A DNA stretch of 64,000 bases from positions 3,328,001 to 3,392,000 of the forward strand of contig CBDBZU010000004.1 in NCBI GenBank assembly GCA_965213625.1, written 5' to 3'. The notes under the pieces were generated by a model, which saw only the letters and a list, made by a program, of their open reading frames with translations, made no database searches and was not told where the DNA came from. Position 1 is the stretch's first letter. Every line of letters begins with the position of its first letter. Source of the DNA: a bacterium. GTDB taxonomy: Bacteria; UBA8248. The position numbers and the translations under genes are program-made. Positions 2,096-24,511 of this stretch are shown in pieces.

Positions 2096-2917
2096 TCAAA
2101 AGGGCCGGCTCAATACCTCAAGCACTCTGGTAGCCTTCACCCTGTCGCCCTCGATGCGGAGGCGAGCCGCTCTTTCCTTAACCTCCAGACTCGCACGGCC
2201 TGTGGTAAGTAGTACAAGGTCGCTACCGCCACATACGACACGCGCGTCGCAATCGCCATGATCGGAAAACACGATTTCGGGCTTGCCTTTTTCGATGCGC
2301 AGCGCCCATTTGCGCTCGGGTTCGTTTGTTTCAAAGCAGATTGTTCCGTTGATATCCTTATCCCCCCGCGCACCGAAGAAGATGGGGAAACGATCGAGGA
2401 GACAATCCACCGCCACGGGCAGAGACGAAGCATGCAAATCGCCATCGGGCTGATTTCGAATGTCCCAGTCGTGGAGAATCAGTTCATAGAGCCTTTGCCC
2501 GGGAAACGTACGAATCGGGCATGGGGCGAGCCAGTGCCAGGCTTGTTTGTCCAGATCATCGGATCGAACCCCCTCAAAGACTTCCTGCAGCCGACATACG
2601 GCTTCGGTGAAAGCGTCTATGCGCTCTTCGCCCGATAGCGCAACGAGTTCATCCCCCACCTTTTTTCGATACGACCAGAACGATTTCAAATCCACCGCGC
2701 CGAAAGGCATCTCCAGACACCCTGCGGCGCCAGCGGGGATGACGTGCGCATAAAAACGCGCGCCCAACGTCATATGCGCCACTACATCTGCCACACACCA
2801 ACCTGGGCAAAAAGTGGGCGCGCGCCACCCTTGCTCGTCCAAGCATCTCAAGACATCGATGAACTTGTGATTTCCCTTTTCCACCCAGCAAACGACACCA
2901 GCAAAAAAATCATTCAT
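2096..2917 (-). CDS. Maleylpyruvate isomerase N-terminal (DinB-like) family protein with SCP2-like C-terminal domain
   Basis: W-x-APTFCPGWCVADVVAH and ELILHDWDI motifs; C-terminal LRIEGD. Confidence 0.8.
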   Translation of the reverse strand: MNDFFAGVVCWVEKGNHKFIDVLRCLDEQGWRAPTFCPGWCVADVVAHMTLGARFYAHVIPAGAAGCLEMPFGAVDLKSFWSYRKKVGDELVALSGEERIDAFTEAVCRLQEVFEGVRSDDLDKQAWHWLAPCPIRTFPGQRLYELILHDWDIRNQPDGDLHASSLPVAVDCLLDRFPIFFGARGDKDINGTICFETNEPERKWALRIEKGKPEIVFSDHGDCDARVVCGGSDLVLLTTGRASLEVKERAARLRIEGDRVKATRVLEVLSRPF

Positions 2918-2974
2918 AACGAAATCCCGCCCCCCTGCCCGGAGACGTGAAATTCCAAGCCCCCGCCAGCGTTA

Positions 2975-4027
2975 TCAAACGGGCATGGCCACTTTTAGTT
3001 CGCCCGAGATTTCCGCCACCTGCTTCCAAACGCCATCATCCACCGGGATTCCTTCCCGCAGCCTTCTTTCCTTTTCCCTGAAGCTGCGCTCCCCGGGCAC
3101 GCGAATCTCCTCCACGCCAGGGGCTCTGCGCGTGTTTTTGACCTCGGCGACATGGTAATCAACCATCTCCCTGAACACCTTCGGATCCCCAAATGCGGAT
3201 GGATCGATGGCGATGAACAAATCCCCCTTGTCGTAATGCCCCTCATGTACCGATTGACTGAGAGGCTTACCGACCTTGGCCCCAAGCAAAGGTCCCGCCA
3301 GAAGACCGATCAACAAACAAAGGCCGTAACCCTTGTGCTCCCCGAAAGGGGCAACCGCACCCGCAGCAGCCGTTTTCGCGTCCGTCGTCGGCTCGCCATC
3401 CGGCCCCACCGCCACGCCTTCCGGAATCGGCTCTCCCGTGACACTCGCTTTCAAGATCATCCCATAAGGAATGGCGCTCGTCGCAAAGTCGAGGAGTACG
3501 GGTTCGTCCCCGCCCTTTGGAACGGCTATTGAAAAAGGGTTCGTGCCCATGAGGCGCTCCACACCCCCATATGGATGAACAAGCGGCTGCGTGACGCCTG
3601 TAACGATTCCCACGCAACCTGCACGGGCGATACGCTCCGCATAATATCCCGTCATGCAGATGTGATCGCTATTCACGACGCCAACGGTGCAAGATCCCGC
3701 CTTTTCCGCTTTCCTGGCCGCGAGGGTTGCACCATAGGTTGCGCCCACGGGTCCCATGGCGCGATCGCCTTCCACCAACGCGGACCCCTCCCGCTCGTGC
3801 ACGACATGAGGTCTGGCATTTGCGTTAATCATCCCGCTCTGGATTCTTCGGATCATGTTCGGTAGGCGAATGAGGCCGTGGGTGGAATAACCCCTGAGAT
3901 CGGCTTCTATCAATACGTCGGCCGTCGACATCGATTGCTCGTGCGAACAACCCACGGCCGCCAGTATGCGCTCCATCAAATCGCGTAGTGCGTCCGCGTT
4001 GACGATGCGCTCTTTATCTAGACTCAT
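2975..4027 (-). CDS. Ldh_2 family oxidoreductase (malate/L-lactate/L-sulfolactate dehydrogenase-like)
   Basis: ADLRGYSTHG, GTNPFS, LDFATS, HKGYGL and RVPGER motifs; start placed at ATG 4027. Confidence 0.9.
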   Translation of the reverse strand: MSLDKERIVNADALRDLMERILAAVGCSHEQSMSTADVLIEADLRGYSTHGLIRLPNMIRRIQSGMINANARPHVVHEREGSALVEGDRAMGPVGATYGATLAARKAEKAGSCTVGVVNSDHICMTGYYAERIARAGCVGIVTGVTQPLVHPYGGVERLMGTNPFSIAVPKGGDEPVLLDFATSAIPYGMILKASVTGEPIPEGVAVGPDGEPTTDAKTAAAGAVAPFGEHKGYGLCLLIGLLAGPLLGAKVGKPLSQSVHEGHYDKGDLFIAIDPSAFGDPKVFREMVDYHVAEVKNTRRAPGVEEIRVPGERSFREKERRLREGIPVDDGVWKQVAEISGELKVAMPV

Positions 4028-4049
4028 GTGCGAAAAAACCTTTCTGTCT

Positions 4050-4559
4050 CTAAAGATCGGGGTTGGGAGCGGAAACGCTCGGCTTGGTGACATGCATCAT
4101 CCAGCAATAAATTTCTATCCGATTGCCGTCAGGGTCTAAAAAGTAGAATGCATGGCTTCCGCTTCCGCCGATGAATCCGTTCTCATCCAAACCCTCATGC
4201 GCATGAACATAGGGACCCGAGACAAACTCCACACCACAGGATTTCACGTGTTCCTGAGCAAGAAGCCAATTTTCTCGGTCATCAACCTCAAAAGCGATAT
4301 GGTGTAATCCGACATCCGTTCGATGTTCGGAGTCGGTCATCGTCAACCCGGCTTTCACGGCGTCTTCGGGCAACTCGAACAAGACCAGAGTGTGATGCTT
4401 CTCCGCGCAACGCATGAAACAGATCGGACGGAAGAAATCCGGAGGACCCCATTTCCCCGTCAGCTTCAATCCCACCACCTCACGATAGAACTTGATGGAG
4501 CGTTCAACGTCACTCACGTGGATTCCCATGTGACCAAGTCGTGCAACATTACAACCCAT
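4050..4559 (-). CDS. VOC family (glyoxalase/extradiol dioxygenase-like) protein
   Basis: LGHMGIHVSD, GLHHIAFEV, FYFLDPDGNRIEI. Confidence 0.9.
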   Translation of the reverse strand: MGCNVARLGHMGIHVSDVERSIKFYREVVGLKLTGKWGPPDFFRPICFMRCAEKHHTLVLFELPEDAVKAGLTMTDSEHRTDVGLHHIAFEVDDRENWLLAQEHVKSCGVEFVSGPYVHAHEGLDENGFIGGSGSHAFYFLDPDGNRIEIYCWMMHVTKPSVSAPNPDL

Positions 4560-4703
4560 TCCTATCCCTCCAAGAACGAATGCAGTGCAGAAAAATTCGT
4601 TTGCCTAAAATGGTGCGGCATCATAACATGCGCGGGCACGGTTGGCGTGTGCCTGTCCAGTTTGCAGATAAGCCGCTTCATACCCCAATGAAAGGGCATT
4701 CGA

Positions 4704-5531
4704 ATGTCGAATAAACCGGGTATCATCGCAATTTTTCTTGCCGCCACCATACTCTTCTCCGGCATATATCTGCTCCCATCCGCGAATAGTGAAAAAGTGA
4801 AACCCGCCGCAAACACAATCTCATCAAAAGAAACCAGGTCGAAAGCAGCGCCTGCTCCCACCCTCTTGGCGCAAAATTTCGACAAAAAGCAAATTGAAAA
4901 AATCATCAGAGAATATCTCATTGAAAACCCTGAAGTACTTGAGGAGGCCATCAGGGCTTTAAGAACAAAGCGAGAAGCAAAGCGCCTGGCTGCGGCCCAA
5001 ACCTCTATCCTGAGAAACAGGAAACAAATCTATGAGGACCCCGATGACCCCGTTGGCGGGAACCCCAACGGAGATGTGACAATTGTGGAATTTTTCGATT
5101 ATCGATGCGGGTTTTGCAAGCGAGTGGCCCCTGTCGTAAATGAAGCACTCGCAAAAGACAAGAACATCCGTATCGTCTACAAGGAGTTCCCCGTACTAGG
5201 CCCGAATTCCATATTGGCGGCCCGGGCGGCTCTCGCCTCACGCGCACAGGGCAAATATCATACTTTTCACAAGGCTCTCATGAAGGCTAAAATTTCTTAT
5301 GATGAAGCGAGTATCATGAAAATCGCCGACACCGTGGGCATAGACACGGCTCGCCTGAAAAAGGACATGCAAGCGCCAGGCATCCAGGCCCAGATAGCCA
5401 AAACCCGCGCTCTGGCGCGCTCGCTAGGCATACGCGGCACACCAGCCTTCGTAGTGGGAGAACAACTCTTCCCGGGCGCGCTCAGTTCGGCTCAGCTTGC
5501 CCGTATGATTCAAATGGCGAGAAAGAAATAG
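4704..5531 (+). CDS. DsbA family (Com1/ScsC-like) periplasmic thiol-disulfide oxidoreductase
   Basis: Signal peptide, EFFDYRCGFCK (CxxC), GIRGTPAF cis-Pro loop. Confidence 0.92.
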   Translation: MSNKPGIIAIFLAATILFSGIYLLPSANSEKVKPAANTISSKETRSKAAPAPTLLAQNFDKKQIEKIIREYLIENPEVLEEAIRALRTKREAKRLAAAQTSILRNRKQIYEDPDDPVGGNPNGDVTIVEFFDYRCGFCKRVAPVVNEALAKDKNIRIVYKEFPVLGPNSILAARAALASRAQGKYHTFHKALMKAKISYDEASIMKIADTVGIDTARLKKDMQAPGIQAQIAKTRALARSLGIRGTPAFVVGEQLFPGALSSAQLARMIQMARKK

Positions 5532-5539
5532 AAAAGAAA

Positions 5540-5569
5540 AAAGCCCCGGAGATTCCTCTCCGGGGCTTT
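5540..5569. terminator. Intrinsic terminator between convergent genes
   Basis: 13-bp perfect stem AAAGCCCCGGAGA/TCTCCGGGGCTTT, 4-nt loop, A-run upstream. Confidence 0.8.
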
Positions 5570-5585
5570 CCATCCATCGGCAAAC

Positions 5586-6038
5586 TCAGTCTACCGTCAC
5601 CGAACCCATTAACATTCTGCGGTAATCCCACCATTTCCATTTCTTGGGAACCATGGTGATTCGCACACGTATTTTCTGCGCGATGGGCGTATTTACGTAA
5701 TTCGCCCACATCTCCGGCCCAAAAAAGTGATCCACCACGCTTTTCAGCCCCTCGTGGTCCTTACCCATCACCTCGGAGACCTGCGCCTCCCCCTCCACGA
5801 CAACAGCGCGGAAAGGAGCTTCATCATCGTCGATGCAGATGGAAAACGCCGGGTTTCTCCTTAAATTCCTTGCCGAAACGGAATCCTCACCCGTGCTGAT
5901 GAAAAAACTGGCATCCTCGGGATTGAACAGATACAAAAGCGGAATTACGTGCGGGGAACCATCCGCATTCGTGGTAGCGATTCTCGCCATGTGGGGTTCC
6001 TGTAAAAATTCATCCATTTCGGTCGGGCGCTCGGCCAT
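5586..6038 (-). CDS. Pyridoxamine 5'-phosphate oxidase-like (PPOX/split-barrel) flavin- or F420-binding protein
   Basis: ARIATTNADGSPHVIP, RNLRRNP. Confidence 0.85.
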   Translation of the reverse strand: MAERPTEMDEFLQEPHMARIATTNADGSPHVIPLLYLFNPEDASFFISTGEDSVSARNLRRNPAFSICIDDDEAPFRAVVVEGEAQVSEVMGKDHEGLKSVVDHFFGPEMWANYVNTPIAQKIRVRITMVPKKWKWWDYRRMLMGSVTVD

Positions 6039-6117
6039 TTTCCATCTCCTCTCGAAAATTCATGACGTTATGAATCATTCCCGATTTATCGCTCCAAAAT
6101 GATACCGGAGTCCTCCT

Positions 6118-8727
6118 TCACTTCACAATCAGATTCACCAGGCGTCCCGGCACGACAATGTGCTTCACGATCTCTTTATCACCGATGTAACTAGCCGTGA
6201 CGGCTTCCGCTTTTTTCTTCAGTTCCTCCTCGGGCGCATCCGGCAGCGCCATGAACGTGCGCCTCGTCTTTCCGTTCACTTGCACGGCGAATTCTTTCTC
6301 CTCGGCGGCAATGGCCGATTCATCCACTTGGGGCCACGCCACCCGGAAGATACTGACCTCTCCCCCACTTCCGCTAAGAACCTGCCAGAGTTCCTCTGCC
6401 ACGTGAGGCGCCATGGGCGCCATACAGCGAAGCAGAATCTCGGCCGCCTCGCGCTGCACCGCATTGTCCGCCTCGGCCTCCGAGCGAAGCGACGTGGCCA
6501 GTTCCATGATGCGCGCCACCGCCGTGTTAAAGGAGAAGGAGTGCTCATAAACTTCCGTCACCGCCTTCAATGTGGCGTGGGCGTCGCGCCTGAGCTTTCT
6601 CCCGGATGCGGTCAACCCGCTCCCGTCTCCGGAATAGGCATCTGTCTCCCTCCAGGCTTCGAGCCGCTCCGTGAACGTAACCCAAAGCCTTTGCAGGAAC
6701 CTGTGCACGCCTATCAATCCATCATCGCGCCATTCCTTCGAGCGCTCGGGAGGACCGATGAACAGCGTATACAGGCGGCCCGCATCGGCCCCGTATTTTC
6801 CCGTGCATTCTTCAATCGAGACTCCGTTCATCTTCGACTTGCTCATCGAGGCCATCTCGGGGAGCACCTTCTGCCCGGCTTCGTAGCCGCTGCCACTCGG
6901 GCCGTCTGCCGTAACGACAAGAGATTCCTCGTCCACGTCCTGATAGGGTACCCAAACACGGCCGCGCGCATCTGCCAAATAGTAGGCCATCCTGCAAACC
7001 ATTCCCTGGGTGAACAGATTCTCAAAGGGCTCCTCGAAAGAAACAAGCCCCAGATCGTAGAGCACTTTTGTGAAAAACCGCGAGTACAGCAGGTGCATTA
7101 CGGCATGTTCCGCGCCCCCGATGTACTGTGTCACCGGTAGCCAGTGGTTCACGATTTCCGACTGGAACACGGCGCTATCGTCGCGCGGGCTGACGTACCG
7201 CAGGTAATACCAGGATGAGTCCACAAAAGTGTCCATAGTGTCCGTCTCCCGCCGGGCGGGCCTTCCTGTTTTCGGGCTGATGACGTTCACGAAATCCTCG
7301 CTCTGGGCCAGGGGATTTCCCCCTCGGCCCGTGAACTCGACGTCACGCGGGTGCATGACGGGCAGATGATCGTCCGGCACAGGGGTGATGCTGCCGTCTT
7401 CTTCATAGATAACTGGTATCGGCACACCCCAGTAACGCTGGCGAGAAATGAGCCAGTCTCTGAGGCGCCAGTTGATTGTCTTGTCCCCGAAACCCTTTTC
7501 CGCGAAATAATCGATCATCTTCGGATACGCTTCGCGGTTCGGCTGCCCGTCGAATGGGCCGGAGTTTTCCATGACGCCGTCTTCGATGTATGCCTCCTCC
7601 ATCGTGTCGCCATTGAGTCCCCCTTCAGGATGCTGGATGACCACCTTGACCGGGATCCCGTATTTTCTCGCAAAAACGAAATCGCGCTGGTCGTGCGCGG
7701 GCACGCCCATCACGATGCCCGTGCCATATTCCATCAAAGCGTAATCGGCCACGAGCAAGGGTACGCGGTCTCCATTGACGGGGTTGATAATGAAATGACC
7801 CGTATCGACGCCCGTCTTTTCACTCTCTTCGCTCATGCGTTCCGCGGCGCTTTGGGTCTGCATGGCTTCCACGGCCTCACGTATGGAATCCGCGCGGGCA
7901 TTCCCTTCCAGTAACTGATCGATTAGAGGGTGCTCTGGCGCGCAGACCATGAAGGTGACGCCATAGACCGTATCCGGCCTGGTGGTGAAAACCGAGAGCG
8001 TCTCGCCGGTCGTTTCGAGTCTGAAATCAATCCGAGCACCTTCGCTGCGCCCCAGCCAGTTTCTTTGTTGCTGCTTTACGTGCTCGGGCCAGCCGACCAG
8101 ACCATCGAGATCGTCCAGCAGGCGCTGCGCATAATCGGTAATCTTCAGGAACCACTGGCTGAGCCAGCGTTTTTCCACCTTGGCGCCGCTGCGCCAGGCG
8201 ATGCCGTCGTGAATCTGCTCGTTCGCAAGAACGGTCCCATCCACCGGATCCCAGTTGACGAGGGCCTCGCGCTTATACGCCAGGCCATTTTCTAGCATCT
8301 GGAGGAAAATCCACTGTGTCCATTTGTAATAGCCCGGATGCGCGGTGGAAATCTCGCGCGGCCAGTCATAAGCGAGACCCGCCATTCGAAGCTGGCGTCT
8401 CATGTTGTCGATATTTTTTTTCGTCCACGCGGCGGGATGCGCGCCGGCATTGATGGCGGCGTTCTCCGCGGGCAGCCCCAGGGCATCCCAGCCCATCGGG
8501 TGCAAGACCTCAAAGCCGCGCATCTTCCGGTAGCGGCTGATGGCGTCGCCCATCGTGTAGTTGCAGGCGTGGCCCATGTGTAGGTCGCCCGATGGGTAAG
8601 GAAACATCATCAGGGAATAGTAAGTAGGCTTATCACCTGGGTGATCGGAGGTCTCGAATATCTTCTCCTCCGCCCACAGATTCTGCCATTTCCCCTCATA
8701 ACTGGATGGACTATATTCGCCGAGCAT
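6118..8727 (-). CDS. leuS: Leucine--tRNA ligase
   Basis: MFPYPSGDLHMGH, DWLISRQRYWG, MDTFVDSSWY, SMSKS (KMSKS variant), VQVNGK; SD GAGGA before ATG 8727. Confidence 0.98.
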   Translation of the reverse strand: MLGEYSPSSYEGKWQNLWAEEKIFETSDHPGDKPTYYSLMMFPYPSGDLHMGHACNYTMGDAISRYRKMRGFEVLHPMGWDALGLPAENAAINAGAHPAAWTKKNIDNMRRQLRMAGLAYDWPREISTAHPGYYKWTQWIFLQMLENGLAYKREALVNWDPVDGTVLANEQIHDGIAWRSGAKVEKRWLSQWFLKITDYAQRLLDDLDGLVGWPEHVKQQQRNWLGRSEGARIDFRLETTGETLSVFTTRPDTVYGVTFMVCAPEHPLIDQLLEGNARADSIREAVEAMQTQSAAERMSEESEKTGVDTGHFIINPVNGDRVPLLVADYALMEYGTGIVMGVPAHDQRDFVFARKYGIPVKVVIQHPEGGLNGDTMEEAYIEDGVMENSGPFDGQPNREAYPKMIDYFAEKGFGDKTINWRLRDWLISRQRYWGVPIPVIYEEDGSITPVPDDHLPVMHPRDVEFTGRGGNPLAQSEDFVNVISPKTGRPARRETDTMDTFVDSSWYYLRYVSPRDDSAVFQSEIVNHWLPVTQYIGGAEHAVMHLLYSRFFTKVLYDLGLVSFEEPFENLFTQGMVCRMAYYLADARGRVWVPYQDVDEESLVVTADGPSGSGYEAGQKVLPEMASMSKSKMNGVSIEECTGKYGADAGRLYTLFIGPPERSKEWRDDGLIGVHRFLQRLWVTFTERLEAWRETDAYSGDGSGLTASGRKLRRDAHATLKAVTEVYEHSFSFNTAVARIMELATSLRSEAEADNAVQREAAEILLRCMAPMAPHVAEELWQVLSGSGGEVSIFRVAWPQVDESAIAAEEKEFAVQVNGKTRRTFMALPDAPEEELKKKAEAVTASYIGDKEIVKHIVVPGRLVNLIVK

Positions 8728-16503: not shown

Positions 16504-16776
16504 ATGAGCCGAGCGCTGGTAATGCACCCGAAAGACAACGTGGCAACTGTGCTCGAGGACGTCTCCCCCGAGCAGAGCGTGGAAATCGAAGGCGGTGAAA
16601 AGATACTCACGCTCTCTGCATCAGAATCGGTTCCTTTTGGACACAAAATTGCGTTGCGTAAGATCCGCTCGAACGCAAAAGTGCTCAAATACGGCGAGGT
16701 CATCGGCACCGCCACACAAGAGATATCCGTCGGCAGTCACGTTCACGTCCATAACATCAAGAGCACAAGAGGCTAG
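16504..16776 (+). CDS. UxaA family dehydratase small (SAF) subunit, SuyA-like
   Basis: HPKDNVA, PFGHKIAL, KYGEVIG, HVHVHN. Confidence 0.9.
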   Translation: MSRALVMHPKDNVATVLEDVSPEQSVEIEGGEKILTLSASESVPFGHKIALRKIRSNAKVLKYGEVIGTATQEISVGSHVHVHNIKSTRG

Positions 16777-16778
16777 GC

Positions 16779-17957
16779 ATGGCCCGGAAAAAAGCAACTC
16801 CCACTTTCTGGGGCTACAGAAGACCTGAAGGTCCTCCGGGTGGGCGGAATCATCTCGCTATCGTCAGCGGAATGGACAATTCCAACCCCATCGTTCGAAG
16901 AATCGGTTCACTGGTGCGAGACGCCACCCCCGTCAACACCTCGTTCGGACGCGCCCTGATGGGCGAGGACGAGGCGCAACACTGGCGGGTCATGGGGCAC
17001 ACCGCCGCCCACCCGAACGTCGGGGCTGCCATCATCGTGAGCCTCGAACCCAAGAGCGCCAGCGCCATCGCGGAAGTAGCCGCGAGAACATCTCCCTGGA
17101 TGCCCATAGAAGCCGTAAACATCCAGGAGATTGGAGGCACGCTCAGCACCACCTCGCATGTCGTGGAACTCGCAACGAAACTTTCCGCCCATCTCGCATC
17201 CGCCAAGCGCGTCCGTTGTGAATTGGGTGAACTCACCATCGGGGCGGAATGCGGAGGATCAGATACAACCAGCGGCGTCATCTCGAACCCCGTGACGGGC
17301 ATGGTCGCAGACAGGGTCGTGGAAGCGGGGGGTTCGGTTATTTTTTCCGAAACGCTGGAAATCGTGGGCGCCGAGCATCTCCTCGCTCGTCGGGCTGCGG
17401 ACAAAAAAACGGCGCGGAGAATCATCGATTCCGCAAATAGCGCCGTCGATTACGCCGAAAGCATCGGCGTCGACTTCATCGGATCGAATCCGGCGCCGGA
17501 TAACATCCGGGGAGGTCTGTCGTCCATCGAGGAAAAAAGTCTGGGGGCTATAAAAAAAGCAGGGAGCCACCCCATCGTCGAGGTCGTAGGCGTAGGAGAA
17601 CGCCCCTCGAAGAAAGGCACCATCTTCGCCGACGCTCCCTGCGCGGGCGTAGAGAACATCTCCTCCCTGGCGGCCAGCGGGGCGCAGGCGATCATTTTCT
17701 CGACCGGAATCGGCAATCCTATCGGCCATCCCATCTCTCCCACCATCAAAGTGACCGGAAATCCCCGGACCGCGCGGACGATGGCCGAGAACATCGACGT
17801 GGACATCAGCGGCGTCATGGAGGGAACGATGCGAATCGATGAGGCGAAGAATTTGCTCGAAAAAGAACTGATAGCGGTGATGAGCGGTAAACTCACGACA
17901 TCGGAGCTTCTCGGAGAAACCGAACTCACGGTCAGCAGGGCCGCATTAAGCCTCTAA
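16779..17957 (+). CDS. UxaA family dehydratase large subunit, SuyB-like
   Basis: HPNVGA, ECGGSD, GGLSSIEEKSLG. Confidence 0.9.
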   Translation: MARKKATPTFWGYRRPEGPPGGRNHLAIVSGMDNSNPIVRRIGSLVRDATPVNTSFGRALMGEDEAQHWRVMGHTAAHPNVGAAIIVSLEPKSASAIAEVAARTSPWMPIEAVNIQEIGGTLSTTSHVVELATKLSAHLASAKRVRCELGELTIGAECGGSDTTSGVISNPVTGMVADRVVEAGGSVIFSETLEIVGAEHLLARRAADKKTARRIIDSANSAVDYAESIGVDFIGSNPAPDNIRGGLSSIEEKSLGAIKKAGSHPIVEVVGVGERPSKKGTIFADAPCAGVENISSLAASGAQAIIFSTGIGNPIGHPISPTIKVTGNPRTARTMAENIDVDISGVMEGTMRIDEAKNLLEKELIAVMSGKLTTSELLGETELTVSRAALSL

Positions 17958-18004: not shown

Positions 18005-18517
18005 TTAAAAACCCATGCCCACAATGAGTCGATTCCAGGAGTTAATGAGCGCGATGGCTCCGAGAAGCTCCACAATCTGCGCTTCTGAATAGTGGGCCTT
18101 CAGCGCTTCAAACGTCTCATCCGAAATGCTCACTCCCTGCGTGCTCTCCTCGCAAAGGCGAAGCGCCGCCTTCTCCTTCTCATCGAAGACGTCACTCGAA
18201 GAACCCTCTTGCGCGGCTTTCGTCTTCTCGTCTCCTGCCTTGTGCATCCTTGCCATGTTGGAATGCATGTTGGTGCAAAAATGACACCCGTTTAGCACCG
18301 ACGCCCGAATGTTCAAGATTTCCTTGAAGCCGACGTCGATCTCCCCCGGGCCGTCCGCCACCGTGGTCAGGCTCAGCAAAGAACGCAAAAAATCCGGTTT
18401 GTGGGCCAGCGCCTTTACCGGAGGAATCACGATGCCGAATTGTTTTTTCAGATTCTCCATGATGCGTTTCGCGGATGCTTCCGCCTGCTCGGGCTCTAAC
18501 AAGGAAATCCGTGGCAT
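18005..18517 (-). CDS. Carboxymuconolactone decarboxylase / AhpD-like protein
   Basis: S-x-LNGCHFC-x-x-H motif, INSWNRL. Confidence 0.88.
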   Translation of the reverse strand: MPRISLLEPEQAEASAKRIMENLKKQFGIVIPPVKALAHKPDFLRSLLSLTTVADGPGEIDVGFKEILNIRASVLNGCHFCTNMHSNMARMHKAGDEKTKAAQEGSSSDVFDEKEKAALRLCEESTQGVSISDETFEALKAHYSEAQIVELLGAIALINSWNRLIVGMGF

Positions 18518-18750
18518 TCCATGCTCCTTAGATAGATTCGTCTGAATGTGAGCTTACTAAAAAAAGACATACTCTTTTCACAGATATTTACGCCACCTCA
18601 AGGCTACCGGTCAACGAATACGCTAAAATCATCCCTCTTTCAGCAGCTATACGTATGAGCGCAAGCACATATCATCAACATTTGTTAAACTATGCCCCAT
18701 AATTTGTGTTACCCACATCATGCGCCCAAAACGAGTGGATGGAAGCTGCC

Positions 18751-19578
18751 ATGAGCAAGCAAATGTCCTTACGAGAAGCCGCTTCTCTCATTGAAGGAGG
18801 AGACGCAATAAGTCCCGGCGGCACCCTCTTGCACAGAACACCCGCCGCCCTCATCCGTGAAATTGCGCGCGCGGGCCTTCGGGATCTCATGCTCATCAAA
18901 CCCTCTCCCGGATACGACGCCGATCTCCTTTGCGCCGCAGGGGCCGTGAAGAGAATCATCAGCGGCATCGTCACATTCGAGGCGGAATTCGGATTGGCGC
19001 CTCACTACCGGAAGGCGATTGAAAAGGGCTTGACCGGCCTCACCGAACACGCCTGAGCCAGTGTTCTGGCAGGGCTGCGGGCCGCAGCCTACGGCGTTCC
19101 ATTCCAGCCCATTCGCGGTTTCGACGGGAGCGACATTCCGGAACAAAGCGGCATATTCACGATGGAAGATCCCTACACGAAAGAGGAACTCTATGCGATT
19201 CCCGCTCTCAAGCCGGACTGGGCATTAATACACGTCCAGAAATCTGACCCGCATGGAAACGCGCAAATCCTGGGCAACCAGCAATTCGACGTTGAAATGA
19301 CGCGCGCGGCACAAAATGGCGTCATTCTCACGACCGAGAAAATCGTAGACCCCGAAGAGATCGCAGCGGAACCGGAGAGAACCACCATTCCAGGCTTTCT
19401 CGTCAAAGCTGTTGTGGAAACGCCGGGCGGAGCGTCTCCCTGCAGTTGCCATCCATACTATGGGGTCGACAAAGACGAAATGAAACGTTACATGACCTTG
19501 ACTCAGAGCCCGGACGGGCTTCGGGAATATCTTGCGAGCACCGACAAAACACACACACAAGATGCGGTGACAAAATAG
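18751..19578 (+). CDS. CoA-transferase family I alpha subunit (GctA/IpdA-like) with a single in-frame TGA at 19054-19056; candidate selenoprotein
   Basis: ORFs 18706-19056 and 19162-19578 are in one frame; the sequence reads ...TEHA*ASVLAGLRAAAYGVPF... with family-like residues on both sides; a SECIS-like hairpin follows. Confidence 0.8.
19057..19090 (+). promoter_or_regulatory. Candidate bacterial SECIS element
   Basis: Stem 19072-19079/19083-19090 (GGGCTGCG/CGCAGCCT) with a G-initial loop about 23 nt after UGA; short GCCAG/CTGGC hairpin directly after UGA. Confidence 0.55.
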
Positions 19579-19580
19579 CG

Positions 19581-20333
19581 ATGGGCAATCGTCTGGCTTC
19601 GTTGCCCAAGCACGTAATTCGCGCGGGAAACCAGATGGCCGTCACACTCTCGCGCCTCATCCAAGATGGCGAGAAGGTGTTCCACGGCGTCAACTCCCCG
19701 CTTCCCATGGTCGCGATCTTTTTGGCCAAGAAACGACATGCCCCCAATTGCTCGCTTATAGAAGTCGCGGGTTCGGTGGACCCTCAACCGCGCTTCATGC
19801 CGAATAGCACGGCCGACCCTGAACTCTGCCATGGCGCGGCTTCCATGTTCTACAACCCGGACATGTACGATCTTTTTGCTCGCGGCGGGGTGGACATGGC
19901 TTTCCTGGGGGCCGCCCAACTCGACAAACAAGGGCGAGCCAACATGAGCTACATCGGCGACCCGTTCCAGCCGAAAGTGAAGCTTCCCGGCGGAGGGGGA
20001 GGCGCCGTCATCATGCCTCAGGTGAAACGCACCGTCATATGGCGAACTTTGCACGACAGGCGATTTCTCGTACCCCGGGTCGATTTCTCTACCCAATCAG
20101 GCAGTCTAAGCCACTTGGTGACACCTATCGCTTTGTTCGAGAAAAAACCCACAGGGCTCGAAATTGCCAGTGTTCACCCTGGCCACTCGATGAATGAAGT
20201 GATCGAGAATACCGGCTTCGAACTGGAACACCCGAGCGTCGTGGCGCAAACTACCGCGCCAAACGCCGAAGAACTGAACGCCCTGGAGGAACTCGACCCT
20301 GATGGCGTGCGCTTTACGGAATTCCGTTTTTAG
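19581..20333 (+). CDS. CoA-transferase family I beta subunit (GctB/IpdB-like)
   Basis: FLGAAQLDKQGRAN, LPGGGG, HPG...ENTGF; starts 2 nt after alpha-subunit stop. Confidence 0.9.
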   Translation: MGNRLASLPKHVIRAGNQMAVTLSRLIQDGEKVFHGVNSPLPMVAIFLAKKRHAPNCSLIEVAGSVDPQPRFMPNSTADPELCHGAASMFYNPDMYDLFARGGVDMAFLGAAQLDKQGRANMSYIGDPFQPKVKLPGGGGGAVIMPQVKRTVIWRTLHDRRFLVPRVDFSTQSGSLSHLVTPIALFEKKPTGLEIASVHPGHSMNEVIENTGFELEHPSVVAQTTAPNAEELNALEELDPDGVRFTEFRF

Positions 20334-20418: not shown

Positions 20419-21060
20419 ATGAGTAATGACTTGGTAAATCGATTAAGGAGCTATTCAGCCTGTCAGGCGGCAGACGCTTTTGACAAATTGAAGATCAGGG
20501 GCCACATGCCCGACATTATCCTGTTGTCTCCCGACCCTGATTACAGGATGGTGGGGGAAGCCCATACCGTTCGAATGGTTCCCGCCGGCGGCGGACCGCT
20601 GCCCAAACGCGAGGTGCACCACATCGACGCGGCGCCCGAGGGCAGCATCGTCGTCATCAGCATCCCGCCCGGAGTCACGACGGCCAACTGGGGCGGGATG
20701 ATGACCACGCGGGCGAAGGTGATGAACCTCGCAGGTGTCGTCCTGGACGGCAGGGCAAGGGACATTGAAGAACACCGCCATGCGGGTTTTCCCGTGTTCG
20801 CCAGGGGGGTATCGGTTCACGGCAGCGGCGGGTATACGGTTCCCATCAGTGTGGGAGAGCCGATCAATTGCGGGGGCGTCGCGGTGAGGCAGGGAGACAT
20901 CATTCTTGGCGACGTAAACGGCGTTGTCGTCATCCCCGTGGAAAGGCTCGAGGAAGTCATCGACAAGATGGATGAACTGGCGGAAATCGAAGAAAGAATC
21001 ATCGCGGAACTCGACAAAGGCGTGAGCATTGGTGAGGCATTCTCCAGGCACAGAAACTAG
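20419..21060 (+). CDS. RraA family / HMG-CHA aldolase-like protein
   Basis: WGGMMT, GVVLDGRARD, GDIILGDVNGVVVIP. Confidence 0.9.
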   Translation: MSNDLVNRLRSYSACQAADAFDKLKIRGHMPDIILLSPDPDYRMVGEAHTVRMVPAGGGPLPKREVHHIDAAPEGSIVVISIPPGVTTANWGGMMTTRAKVMNLAGVVLDGRARDIEEHRHAGFPVFARGVSVHGSGGYTVPISVGEPINCGGVAVRQGDIILGDVNGVVVIPVERLEEVIDKMDELAEIEERIIAELDKGVSIGEAFSRHRN

Positions 21061-21861: not shown

Positions 21862-23934
21862 TCAGTCCCTATCGAGCGCATGTTCAATCGCGCCCAAGTC
21901 CGTGAGGGGCTCCTTGCATGTAAAATTTTCGCACAGATACACAGCCGCTCGCCCATCCACCATGGATTTTCCATCAAGCAAAGGAACTGCGGCGTCTGTT
22001 TCTTCGCTTGATGATTTGGACTTGAAAGCCAAAACCTTGTTTGGAATGAAACGGGAATCAACGGCCCTGAGAGCCGCTTGTGTATCCTCAGCGTTTCTTT
22101 CACCGACAATCGCCACCTCTACCGGGGAATCAAGATGAAAATCAAGCGCCACCAGCATCATGTGGAAAGCGGCGGGCACGCGGCTCAGATAGTCGCCGAA
22201 CGAGCGCAAAACGCCCTCGCCGCGTTTTGCGAATTCTGCCTCGCCCGTGAATTTCGCCAGCTTCAGTAACGCCAGCGCCGCCACCGAATTCCCGCTCGGA
22301 ACGGCGCCGTCTTGCGTCATCTTCTTCCGCACGATGAGTTGTTCATGATCGTGGGCCGTAAAGAAGAATGCGCCCCCCTCATCATCCCAATAGCGCGATA
22401 TCATTTCCTGCGCCAATTCAGACGCCGCTCGAATCCACCGCGGCTCGAAACTCGCCTCATATAAATCCACCAGCCCCAGGATCAGAAAAGCATAATCATC
22501 CAGATAGGCGTTAAATTTGCTCACGCCCTCCCGGTGGCTTCTCAGCAAGCCGCGCTCCTCGCGCATGTTGTTCAAAATAAATTCAGCCGCTTTGCCCGCT
22601 TCTTCAACGTAAGGGCGGTGCTCCAGAATCCTGCCCGCCAAAGCCATCGAACCGATCATGAGTCCGTTCCAGCTCGTGAGAATTTTATCGTCCAGGCCCG
22701 GCTTTACTCGCCGCTCGCGCTCGGCGAAGAGTTTTGCGCGCCCTCTTTGCAAGACATCAAAGAGCTTCTCTTCGGTGAGCCCCGACTCTTCGGCGAAAAC
22801 GCGGGGTGGTTTCTGAATAAACAAGGCGGAGGTCTTGCCTTCGAAGTTCCCCTCCTCCGTCACGCTGTAGAACCGGCAGAATATGTCGGCTTCTTCTTTG
22901 CCGAGAATCTCTTCTATCTCCTCAGGACGCCATACGAAGAACTTGCCCTCCTCGCCCTCGCTGTCGGCGTCCTGCGCAGAATAAAATCCACCGCTCGGGC
23001 TGGTCATCTCGCGCAAAACGTAATCGAGCGTATCCGTAACCACGGAACGGTAAAACGCGCTTCCCGTCGCCTGGTATGCCTCGAGGTAGACTCTGGACAG
23101 CAGAGCGTTGTCATAAAGCATTTTCTCGAAGTGCGGGATGAGCCAGTAAGCATCCACGCTATAGCGGTGAAAACCTCCTCCGAGTTGATCATACATCCCG
23201 CCCAGCGCCATCCTCTGGAGTGTAATCTCGACCATTTTCAGCAATTCCTGATCCGGGGACCGTTTCCATTTTCTTAAAAGGAGCATCAGCGCCATGGAGG
23301 GCGGGAATTTTGGAGCGCTCCCGAAACCGCCCCAGGTGGAATCGAATCGTTCCTTTAATTCCTGAGCAGCCTGGTCGATCCACTCGGCTTTCAAATCACC
23401 TTCAGCTGGCGTTACGACCCCCATTTGCTGCAGATTCGCAGTGATGCTCTCTGCGTTCGTATGCAATTCGTCCTGTCTCGTCTGGTAAATTTCGGCCAGC
23501 TTCATGAGCACGTTTTTAAAGCCGGGCCTCCCCCATTTGTCATCCGGCGGAAAATACGTGCCCCCGAAAAAGGGCCTCAAATCCGGGAGCAGGAAAACGC
23601 TCATCGGCCAACCACCCTGGCCCGTCATCATCTGCACCGCTTCCATATAAATGCCGTCGATATCGGGGCGTTCTTCCCGGTCCACCTTGATGGAGACGAA
23701 ATGCTCATTCAGGATGTCGGCGATTCCCTCATCCTCGAAGCTCTCATGCTCCATCACGTGGCACCAATGACAGGCGGAATAGCCGACGGACAAGAAAATG
23801 GGCTTGTTCTCATCTCTTGATTTACGGAGCGCGTCCTCGCCCCAGGGATACCACTGCACCGGATTGTTTTGATGCTGCAAGAGATATGGGCTCGTCTCCT
23901 GTGCGAGGCGGTTCTTCTGCCGGGGTTGATTCAT
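21862..23934 (-). CDS. Thioredoxin domain-containing protein, YyaL/SSP411 family
   Basis: [32 protein letters not shown]; SD GAGGA before ATG 23934. Confidence 0.95.
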
Positions 23935-24007
23935 GAATTCCTCATGTAAGTAGATAAAAGTCCGCTGACCAAGAAAATACGCCTGCCGACAGGGTATGGG
24001 AGAATGA

Positions 24008-24511
24008 TCAACAAAACAATTCGGGCTGCGGAGCGATTTGCACGTGTGTCTCCACGCGGCCGTCCCCGCGAATATGCGATATGTTTTCGCCGCAACTCTC
24101 CGTCCAAGCCGCCGATACCAGATGCAGGCGATGACAGTTTCTCGGGTTCTCCTCCGCACAAAGAACCGCCGTGGGTTCTTTTCCCACTTGCGTTCTCAAG
24201 CGCTCCATCGCAAGGATGAAACTCTCATCACGCCTCACTTTCTTCCAGTCGATACGCCTATCAGAGCCAAAGAATTCTGGGTTTTCACTAAAGTTGCGTT
24301 TCCCGCCCAGCGCCTCTCCTTCCCAAACGTATGCGATATTTCGCGATGAGAGGCTTTGTCTCATCTTCTCTCTACTAAACTGTGGATTTCTCCTGCTGTA
24401 GGGGATGCTGCGAACATCCACAACGCATGCGATCTCATGACGAGCTAGCAAGTCAAGGAATTTCTCCGCGTTGTGGTTGCTGTGGCCTATCGTCCAGAGC
24501 GGGTGCTTCAT
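24008..24511 (-). CDS. DUF488 family protein
   Basis: [28 protein letters not shown]; ATGA overlap with upstream gene. Confidence 0.9.

Follow-up and report, generated by a model that had tools for sequence, protein, structure and literature searches.

An in-frame UGA in an otherwise intact metabolic gene raises the question of whether the codon ends the protein, is read as a standard amino acid or specifies selenocysteine (Sec) and, in the last case, what the residue does in the enzyme. We considered this question for a 64,000-nucleotide stretch of bacterial DNA (hereafter the window; positions 3,328,001 to 3,392,000 of CBDBZU010000004.1, lineage UBA8248), which lies on contig C4 of a 4.15-Mb genome assembly (G000) and contains a gene for the alpha subunit of a CoA-transferase-fold enzyme with a TGA at codon 102. 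We conclude with high confidence that UGA-102 is a Sec codon, and consider it likely that the gene product is a true selenoprotein and forms the alpha subunit of a heteromeric class I CoA-transferase-fold enzyme, made of two subunits, with a probable catalytic Sec/Cys. The family of Sec/Cys enzymes to which it belongs is real and widespread, and apparently uncatalogued.

The alpha-subunit gene (18751..19578, plus strand) begins with an ATG at 18751 and ends with a TAG at 19576-19578, and its sole in-frame TGA occupies 19054..19056, within the motif E-H-A-U (...GLTEHA-U-ASVLAGLRAAAYGVPFQPIRG). With the TGA read through, the product is a 275-residue protein of the GctA/IpdA/AibA type; the sequence coordinates thus confirm the single TGA at codon 102 and the frame open to 19578 that had been reported in the preliminary description. 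The gene for the beta subunit (19581..20333, plus strand, 250 residues) starts two bases past the alpha stop. Both subunits match PF01144 (CoA_trans), with E values of 1.5e-20 for alpha and 1.5e-17 for beta, and neither scored above the cut-off of any NCBIfam model. The open reading frame listing splits the alpha region into two frames, 18706-19056 and 19162-19578.

A sequencing error at the TGA had been named as a possible objection, and independent assemblies speak to it. Four runs, all from a single study, contain the entire window and are possibly its source; contigs from two of them (X1 and X4) match it without differences. Contigs from two other studies (runs X5 and X11, the label being sponge metagenome) span the alpha gene with many differences, one 33-kb contig showing 50 differences in 828 bases; among the differences listed, none falls in 19054-19056 or in the downstream segment 19072-19090. 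Independent assemblies, including those of the orthologs described below, show the same TGA, which excludes a sequencing error. At window positions 19022-19033, the X5 contig also gains one base and loses another, the two changes being separated by 11 bases; the pair recodes about four codons in a variable KGLTG stretch just before the conserved TEHA-U motif. No RNA run was found among the listed sequencing runs matching the window.

The codon is conserved well beyond the genome at hand. According to six-frame searches, 20 of the 22 other genomes in the genus have a full-length ortholog that contains a single TGA; the remaining two, G015 (94% complete) and G017 (79% complete), yielded no ortholog by this search. 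A partial match with a TGA in G015 was considered as a Sec form and rejected, as it is a frameshifted copy of a His-type paralog. G023, from another genus, also has the single-TGA ortholog, and a phylum-wide search of 51 genomes (E <= 1e-60) added 12 further TGA forms. In other genera of the same uncultured "Nitrospinota" family, the TGA form is found in 13 of 19 genomes at 64-94% identity (g17, 4/4; g19, 1/1; g22, 3/4; g2, 5/5); at the same threshold it is absent from genera g3, g18, g20 and g21 and from all nine genomes outside the family. Altogether, TGA orthologs are present in 34 genomes of five genera in one family, with identity down to 64%. In every ortholog, protein similarity extends through the TGA on both sides, no other lesion is present in any of the 34, and all 34 loci encode the peptide ...TEHA*[AP]S[VI]L AGLRAAAYG... 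(asterisk, TGA). A contig search with a single protein returned 16 loci at 81-94% identity to the TGA-type protein, their titles reading Nitrospinota/Nitrospinaceae or 'bacterium'.

Homologs lacking the TGA are informative about the residue that it replaces. A protein search gave 79 matches, 73 of them full-length; in a MAFFT alignment, 59 of these have Cys at column 102, 11 distant homologs have Glu, and His, Ser and Gln occur once each. One of the Cys-type members is a Bordetella petrii protein (P0050). The six remaining matches (P0005, P0029, P0062, P0064, P0066 and P0070; 166-170 residues) start just after the site and represent Sec forms that gene callers reduced to their C-terminal half; among these, P0029 bears the name Candidatus Tectomicrobia. 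Among 80 metagenome loci, codon 102 is TGA in 59 (including L137), TGC in 17 and TGT in four, a biased proportion because the loci are the best 80 of 314 relatives from a scan with one peptide pattern. The metagenomic Sec forms fall into at least six subfamilies distinguished by their flanking peptides, and 81 distinct sequences, spread over many lineages, have the TGA at this codon. The residue found at position 102 in homologs had been proposed as a check, and its result, Cys in most full-length homologs together with a TGA and hairpin retained in many lineages, favors Sec.

A FastTree phylogeny of 170 sequences (84 Cys, 73 Sec, 11 Glu, 1 His and 1 Ser), a quick tree with several long branches, splits a Cys/Sec clade from the Glu/His/Ser relatives with a support of 99. 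Cys or Sec thus accounts for 157 of the 170 sequences, and Glu occurs only in the outgroup. The tree requires at least four changes between Sec and Cys, and its basal branches are Cys, any order of gains and losses read from it being provisional. Nearly all TGA-bearing genomes of the family also encode a paralog without the stop, at 45-53% identity. The genome containing the window has three alpha paralogs: the Sec type of the window, a Cys type (motif EHAC, 48% identity; G000:C4:1290084-1290872) and one in which His occupies the column (G000:C4:1900963-1901745; 38% identity, motif EWSH). The neighbors of this Cys-type paralog, genes for ScpA/ScpB and a PfkB kinase, are uninformative.

If UGA-102 is decoded as Sec, a selenocysteine insertion sequence (SECIS) would be expected nearby. 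RNA folding of 19054-19113 gave a GC-rich 8-bp stem (19072-19079 paired with 19083-19090) closed by a GGC loop at 19080-19082, which starts 15 nt after the UGA and places the loop 23 nt from it. The SECIS-like hairpin at 19072..19090 (plus strand), noted earlier for its G-initial loop about 23 nt downstream of the UGA, was thereby reproduced. Its spacing and loop presumably fit the bacterial SECIS model of bSECISearch. Across the 34 family orthologs, the 19-nt hairpin is near-invariant, including at six synonymous positions, whereas neighboring third positions vary; the sole changes are an A to G (U-A to U-G) and a C to U (G-C to G-U), at one position each. The equivalent synonymous sites of Cys paralogs in the same genomes vary freely. 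The same contrast appears over a wider range: when 60 distinct Sec-type sequences representing five subfamilies are scored, 97.1% of the 480 cells in the helix are paired, compared with 36.5-52.9% for slid controls, whereas 19 Cys-type sequences reach 63.8% (152 cells), a value that shuffles match. Among the 60 Sec-type sequences, pair 34/46 is C-G in 40, A-U in 11 and unpaired in nine, and pair 31/49 alternates between G-U (39) and G-C (21). At the equivalent site, the sixth subfamily (EHA*MTLV) forms another, shorter hairpin, whose 15 nt are identical in all 21 sequences, whereas third positions on either side vary. A single copy of the 18-nt core of the window's hairpin exists in the 4.15-Mb genome, with one mismatch allowed.

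Directly after the UGA lies a 5-bp mini-hairpin (19057..19070, plus strand), which is found only in the Nitrospinota-family clade. One of its pairs is seen as C-G, G-C and A-U, but 71% of cells are paired and many sequences are mismatched; the mini-hairpin is possibly the lower part of the SECIS.

The genome also possesses the machinery for decoding. Profile searches, which had been suggested as a check, found selA (564 bits), selB (388 bits), selD (333 bits) and tRNA-Sec (75.9 bits), all above curated cut-offs, and ARAGORN assigned the anticodon TCA to the tRNA-Sec. TGA is the commonest stop on contig C4, where it terminates 1428 of the 3035 open frames that reach 300 codons or more; thus, the codon is not reassigned genome-wide. 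The selD match (G000:C4:1518852-1519814, locus L011) is itself interrupted by a single in-frame TGA, which makes SelD another probable selenoprotein of this genome. According to the accessible text of PMC13326102, Nitrospinota/Nitrospinae metagenome-assembled genomes classed as UBA8248 are among the ten most selenoprotein-rich bacteria, with 48-54 selenoprotein genes each.

What, then, might Sec do in this protein? By sequence, the closest structures to the alpha subunit in the Protein Data Bank (PDB) are 5mzw_A (AibA, 3e-32), 1poi_A (GctA, 2.5e-31) and 6con_A (IpdA, 1.4e-29). An AlphaFold2 model built from 52 sequences (mean pLDDT 95.2) gave 6con_A (IpdA) as the best Foldseek match (E 2.7e-26, TM 0.89), followed by GctA and AibA. 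HMMER aligned residue 102 to the Glu within the 'emdEgm' segment of 6con_A and 6co6_A, whereas its counterpart in 6coj_A is Ala; the entry 6COJ is titled 'IpdAB E105A COCHEA-CoA complex'. The column of the UGA is therefore the one at which 6co6_A and 6coj_A differ by E and A, which bears out the alignment with IpdA Glu105 that had previously been proposed. Glu105 reportedly is the catalytic residue of IpdA, as is said of work by Crowe et al. in 2018. In the model, residue 102 is the first of a helix (102-113) that comes right after a strand (96-99). Within the clade, the site has the motif E-[HN]-[AS]-[CU]: E99 is kept in 73/73 Sec forms and 83/84 Cys forms, and residue 100 is His in 58/73 Sec and 60/84 Cys forms, and otherwise mostly Asn or Phe. 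On the basis of this alignment, we regard it as fairly likely that residue 102 is catalytic and occupies the position of IpdA Glu105.

The beta subunit, a PF01144 protein, lacks the catalytic Glu of class I CoA-transferases. Its best match in the PDB is AibB (5mzw_D, 2.5e-35), followed by GctB (2e-21), and its match to IpdB is weak (5e-6). In M. xanthus AibB, Cys56 stands in for the conserved catalytic Glu of glutaconate CoA-transferases, and replacement of Cys56 with Val, among other residues, did not eliminate AibAB activity, according to the accessible text of PMC7756340; Cys56 is thus not strictly required for that activity. At the position of wild-type AibB Cys56, a column at which deposited AibB variants differ, the beta subunit of the window has Val, and in 75 beta subunits encoded beside Sec- or Cys-type alpha subunits, the residue at this AibB Cys56/GctB Glu position is Val in 50 and Ile in 25. 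The earlier claim of a Val where GctB has its Glu therefore holds through the equivalence with AibB Cys56, with Val or Ile in 75/75, the link to GctB itself being indirect. Examined as a class I CoA-transferase, the enzyme has the fold in both subunits and retains the glycine-rich LPGGGGG loop in beta; with the beta catalytic Glu missing, it is not a canonical member of the class and resembles two known repurposed members of the fold. In one metagenome locus, L104, the beta gene (7832-8548) is interrupted by an in-frame stop at a codon that specifies Glu in the near-identical L093 (SSKE*VMEQ vs SSKEEVMEQ); this stop is not at a conserved Cys and is probably an assembly error or a broken copy.

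Gene neighborhoods provide further hints. An AhpD-like (CMD family) CxxC protein is encoded on the minus strand at 18005..18517, divergent from the alpha gene; it matches PF02627, scores above the cut-off for TIGR00778, the model of the AhpD core domain, and contains a CHFC motif. On the plus strand, an RraA-like gene of the aldolase/decarboxylase family (20419..21060; PF03737, E 3.7e-32) lies downstream of beta. The order of an opposite-strand AhpD-like gene, alpha(Sec), beta and an RraA-like gene is conserved as a module in genera g1, g17, g19 and g22, and in all 14 loci holding it, from four genera, the AhpD-like gene is divergent, upstream and equipped with CxxC. Further upstream in the window, on the plus strand, is a split SAF-domain/GD_AH (UxaA or SuyAB-like) dehydratase pair (16504-16776 and 16779-17957), which accompanies the module only in g1, the genus of the window. 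A minus-strand gene at 21862-24159, encoding a 765-residue DUF255/thioredoxin-like (YyaL-type) protein, adjoins an RlpA gene; it is kept beside the module in several genera and brings the genes of a thiol-redox type in this 6-kb span to three. Genus g2 has a different arrangement: at locus L097 (G054, 2665-6817, minus strand), an MFS transporter gene is followed by alpha(Sec), beta, a Cys-type alpha and a gene for a 174-residue CoA_binding_2 protein, with no AhpD-like or RraA-like gene nearby.

In the metagenomes, neighbors were identified by tblastn with named queries, which detects the queried gene types only. In a soil subfamily with Cys-type alpha subunits, a divergent DsbA-like (PF01323) gene is present in 7/7 loci (L114, L116, L118, L119, L122, L123 and L124), about 150-750 nt upstream of alpha on the opposite strand. 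Within a U-P-W-C motif, this gene has a TGA, which is followed some 14 nt later by a good hairpin, so that in this subfamily Sec resides on the DsbA-like partner and not on the alpha enzyme; this is the DsbA-like selenoprotein type already listed in the accessible part of PMC13188914. The presence of a thiol/selenol oxidoreductase neighbor in two unrelated subfamilies suggests that it is functionally connected with the reactive Cys/Sec. The EHA*MTLV Sec subfamily adjoins genes for TctC, an LVIVD-repeat protein and a fumarase-superfamily lyase, with genes for a family III CoA-transferase, a cupin, an enoyl-CoA hydratase and a quinone-oxidoreductase-like protein downstream, and loci of its Cys-type sister contain, in this order, CoA-transferase III, enoyl-CoA hydratase, alpha, beta and an AMP-dependent ligase. 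These neighborhoods point to acyl-CoA metabolism of organic acids.

Taken together, these observations lead us to a working model. The SelA, SelB, SelD and tRNA-Sec of the host would recode UGA-102, directed by the coding-region hairpin 15 nt downstream. The enzyme belongs with the repurposed members of the fold, the ring-opening hydrolase IpdAB and the decarboxylase AibAB, which act on the acyl part of a bound CoA thioester, and it would do likewise. A selenolate or thiolate at residue 102 would then serve as the catalytic nucleophile or as a proton-transfer group, in a chemistry that may consist of acyl-CoA C-C or C-X cleavage or rearrangement, for instance a thiolase-like retro-Claisen step. 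The neighboring CxxC protein, AhpD-like in the family of the window and a DsbA-like selenoprotein in soil, might keep residue 102 reduced or finish a redox step. Catalysis by Sec, the CoA-thioester substrate and the role of the partner are what we infer from sequence and gene context. The preliminary description had suggested that a CoA-transferase scaffold was repurposed with Sec as its catalytic residue; the alignment with Glu105 and the loss of the beta Glu support this suggestion, although Sec catalysis would still be a predicted property. In its most specific form, a Sec-102 nucleophile would cleave or rearrange acyl-CoA through a covalent seleno-intermediate with a dedicated CxxC/UxxC partner, and the protein would be a previously unrecognised kind of selenoenzyme; we put this forward tentatively, as a possibility that may well prove wrong.

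Several points weigh against parts of this interpretation. With regard to the hairpin, the fold energy of the single sequence is modest (z = -1.7), and 14 of 200 shuffles fold equally well; a C.U mismatch occurs at pair 34/46 in nine sequences of one subfamily, pair 38/42 is missing in five sequences and four of the eight pairs are invariant. A scan of 18700-19400 against Rfam (E <= 10) returned nothing relevant. Moreover, the hairpin overlaps the conserved peptide G-L-R-A-A-A, and the Cys-type sequences are still 64% paired; part of the pairing is thus forced by coding, and the contrast between Sec and Cys forms is the relevant evidence. With regard to catalysis, the assigned role derives from the IpdA alignment, the sole backing for the role of Glu105 being PDB entry titles, and the same column is Gln in GctA and Gly in AibA; hence, a catalytic role of column 102 does not extend to every relative. 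Neither alpha (73 Sec and 84 Cys forms) nor beta has an invariant second Cys; in alpha, C61 is found in 66/73 Sec and 58/84 Cys forms, and C233 in 47/73 Sec and 62/84 Cys forms. A simple internal redox pair is therefore not supported. With regard to the substrate, the module of the window has no CoA ligase or transferase gene nearby, so that the use of a CoA ester in this organism is deduced from relatives, and because the neighborhoods differ among subfamilies, these may not share one substrate.

Among the alternatives, the one that fares best accepts Sec-102 and assigns it a different task. Here, the residue would be a redox center rather than a stand-in for Glu105, and the alpha-beta enzyme together with its CxxC/UxxC neighbor would form a reductive system with a logic like that of glycine or proline reductase: the selenolate would attack an atom of the substrate, leaving a Se-S or Se-C adduct for the thiol partner to resolve. 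The divergent thiol/selenol oxidoreductase genes in two separate subfamilies (AhpD-like, 14/14; DsbA-like, 7/7) agree with such a system, as does the location of Sec at the N-terminus of a helix in the AlphaFold2 model, since redox proteins often carry Cys or Sec at this position. Most known selenoproteins, moreover, are redox enzymes, as stated in the accessible text of PMC9312934 and PMC13188914. Against these points stand the lack of an invariant resolving Cys in alpha or beta, the four other subfamilies without a thiol-oxidoreductase neighbor among the queried gene types and the non-redox nature of the nearest characterised relatives. We consider this reductive scheme conceivable, though on the doubtful side.

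A second alternative retains the ancestral reaction. In a working CoA-transferase, Sec/Cys-102 could replace the beta Glu covalently, with an acyl seleno- or thioester formed between CoA and a carboxylate or other acceptor. In favor of it, the fold and the glycine-rich loop are kept in both subunits, and the window module has no other CoA-activating gene. In related loci, however, activation is already provided for by a family III CoA-transferase or an AMP-dependent ligase, and the two closest characterised relatives without the beta Glu are a hydrolase and a decarboxylase. In our judgment, transferase activity is improbable.

The remaining two alternatives deny Sec altogether, and both are extremely improbable. 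If the TGA were an ordinary stop, the locus would be a pseudogene, a split gene (101 + ~170 residues) or a sequencing error, as might be concluded from the gene callers, which split the gene, and from the six database entries that begin just past the TGA; this is contradicted by the TGA shared at one codon among 81 distinct sequences and the Cys found there in homologs, by the 34 lesion-free orthologs, by the contigs of other studies, unchanged at 19054-19056 among the differences listed, and by the position of the first ATG after the TGA, which lies 35 codons on at 19162, inside the conserved core. A TGA read as Trp, Gly or Cys, through an altered code or near-cognate read-through, would likewise leave the frame open across the codon, as expected from a TGA-reassigned code, but it is at odds with TGA being the commonest terminator, the complete Sec machinery, the hairpin conserved at SECIS distance and the homologs that carry Cys, not Trp or Gly. 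We therefore return to UGA-102 as a Sec codon in discussing what the family adds.

The accessible text of PMC9312934 (2022) claims a complete list of 87 prokaryotic selenoprotein families. A term search for CoA-transferase, glutaconate and PF01144 found no such entries in the accessible parts of PMC9312934, PMC13188914 (May 2026) and PMC13326102, and a literature search, with supplements and several primary sources outside its reach, found no description of a selenoprotein of the CoA-transferase family; PMC7176365 and PMC5736913 proved to have no bearing on it. The earlier remark that this is not a described selenoprotein family agrees with its absence from the accessible text of the two catalogue reviews, PMC9312934 and PMC13188914, and the Sec/Cys enzyme family has probably not been described so far. 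It would add to the list of prokaryotic selenoproteins a widespread family with a metabolic fold that is not thioredoxin-like. Because gene callers split such genes in two, the family is under-annotated in thousands of metagenome assemblies. The Sec/Cys pairs flag a functional residue of an uncharacterised enzyme clade, and the series of Glu, Cys and Sec at one catalytic position of the IpdAB/AibAB/Gct fold would constitute a natural experiment on how chemistry changes. The pairing with AhpD-like and DsbA-like (seleno)proteins hints at a possible two-component system. Were the covalent seleno-intermediate to be real, it would represent a use of selenium outside classical redox chemistry, or a new system for reductive C-X/C-C cleavage, in an enzyme family common in soil, freshwater and marine bacteria.

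Among known systems, IpdAB, the hydrolase that opens the ring of COCHEA-CoA in actinobacterial steroid catabolism (6CO6, 6COJ and 6CON), has the same two-subunit fold and a functional residue in alpha at the aligned column. We take IpdB, too, to lack a catalytic Glu, and EchA20 presumably accompanies IpdAB in the same enoyl-CoA hydratase adjacency that is seen in the Cys-type sister of the EHA*MTLV subfamily. The differences are the replacement of Glu105 by Sec/Cys, an alpha identity of only ~31%, the placement of Glu-type relatives in a separate clade and the context of the window, which is not steroid-catabolic (AhpD-like, RraA-like, SAF/UxaA-type dehydratase and RlpA neighbors).

AibA/AibB, the 3-methylglutaconyl-CoA decarboxylase of Myxococcus xanthus (5MZW-5N03), is the best sequence match for both subunits. 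It likewise has no transferase Glu in beta and acts on an acyl-CoA substrate without CoA transfer, according to the accessible text of PMC7756340. AibB Cys56 corresponds to Val here, and the Gly of AibA to Sec; the candidate acid-base group would thus be located on the opposite subunit. Glutaconate CoA-transferase (GctAB, 1POI) has the same fold and subunit arrangement and differs in its beta Glu and in the Gln of GctA at the Sec column; JGI names homologs of the present protein 'glutaconate CoA-transferase subunit A'. With known bacterial selenoproteins, such as FdhA and the AhpD-like and DsbA-like types, the alpha subunit shares an in-frame UGA, Cys homologs, a G-loop hairpin downstream and dependence on selA, selB, selD and tRNA-Sec. 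What sets it apart from them is that its fold and its nearest relatives are those of non-redox metabolic enzymes.

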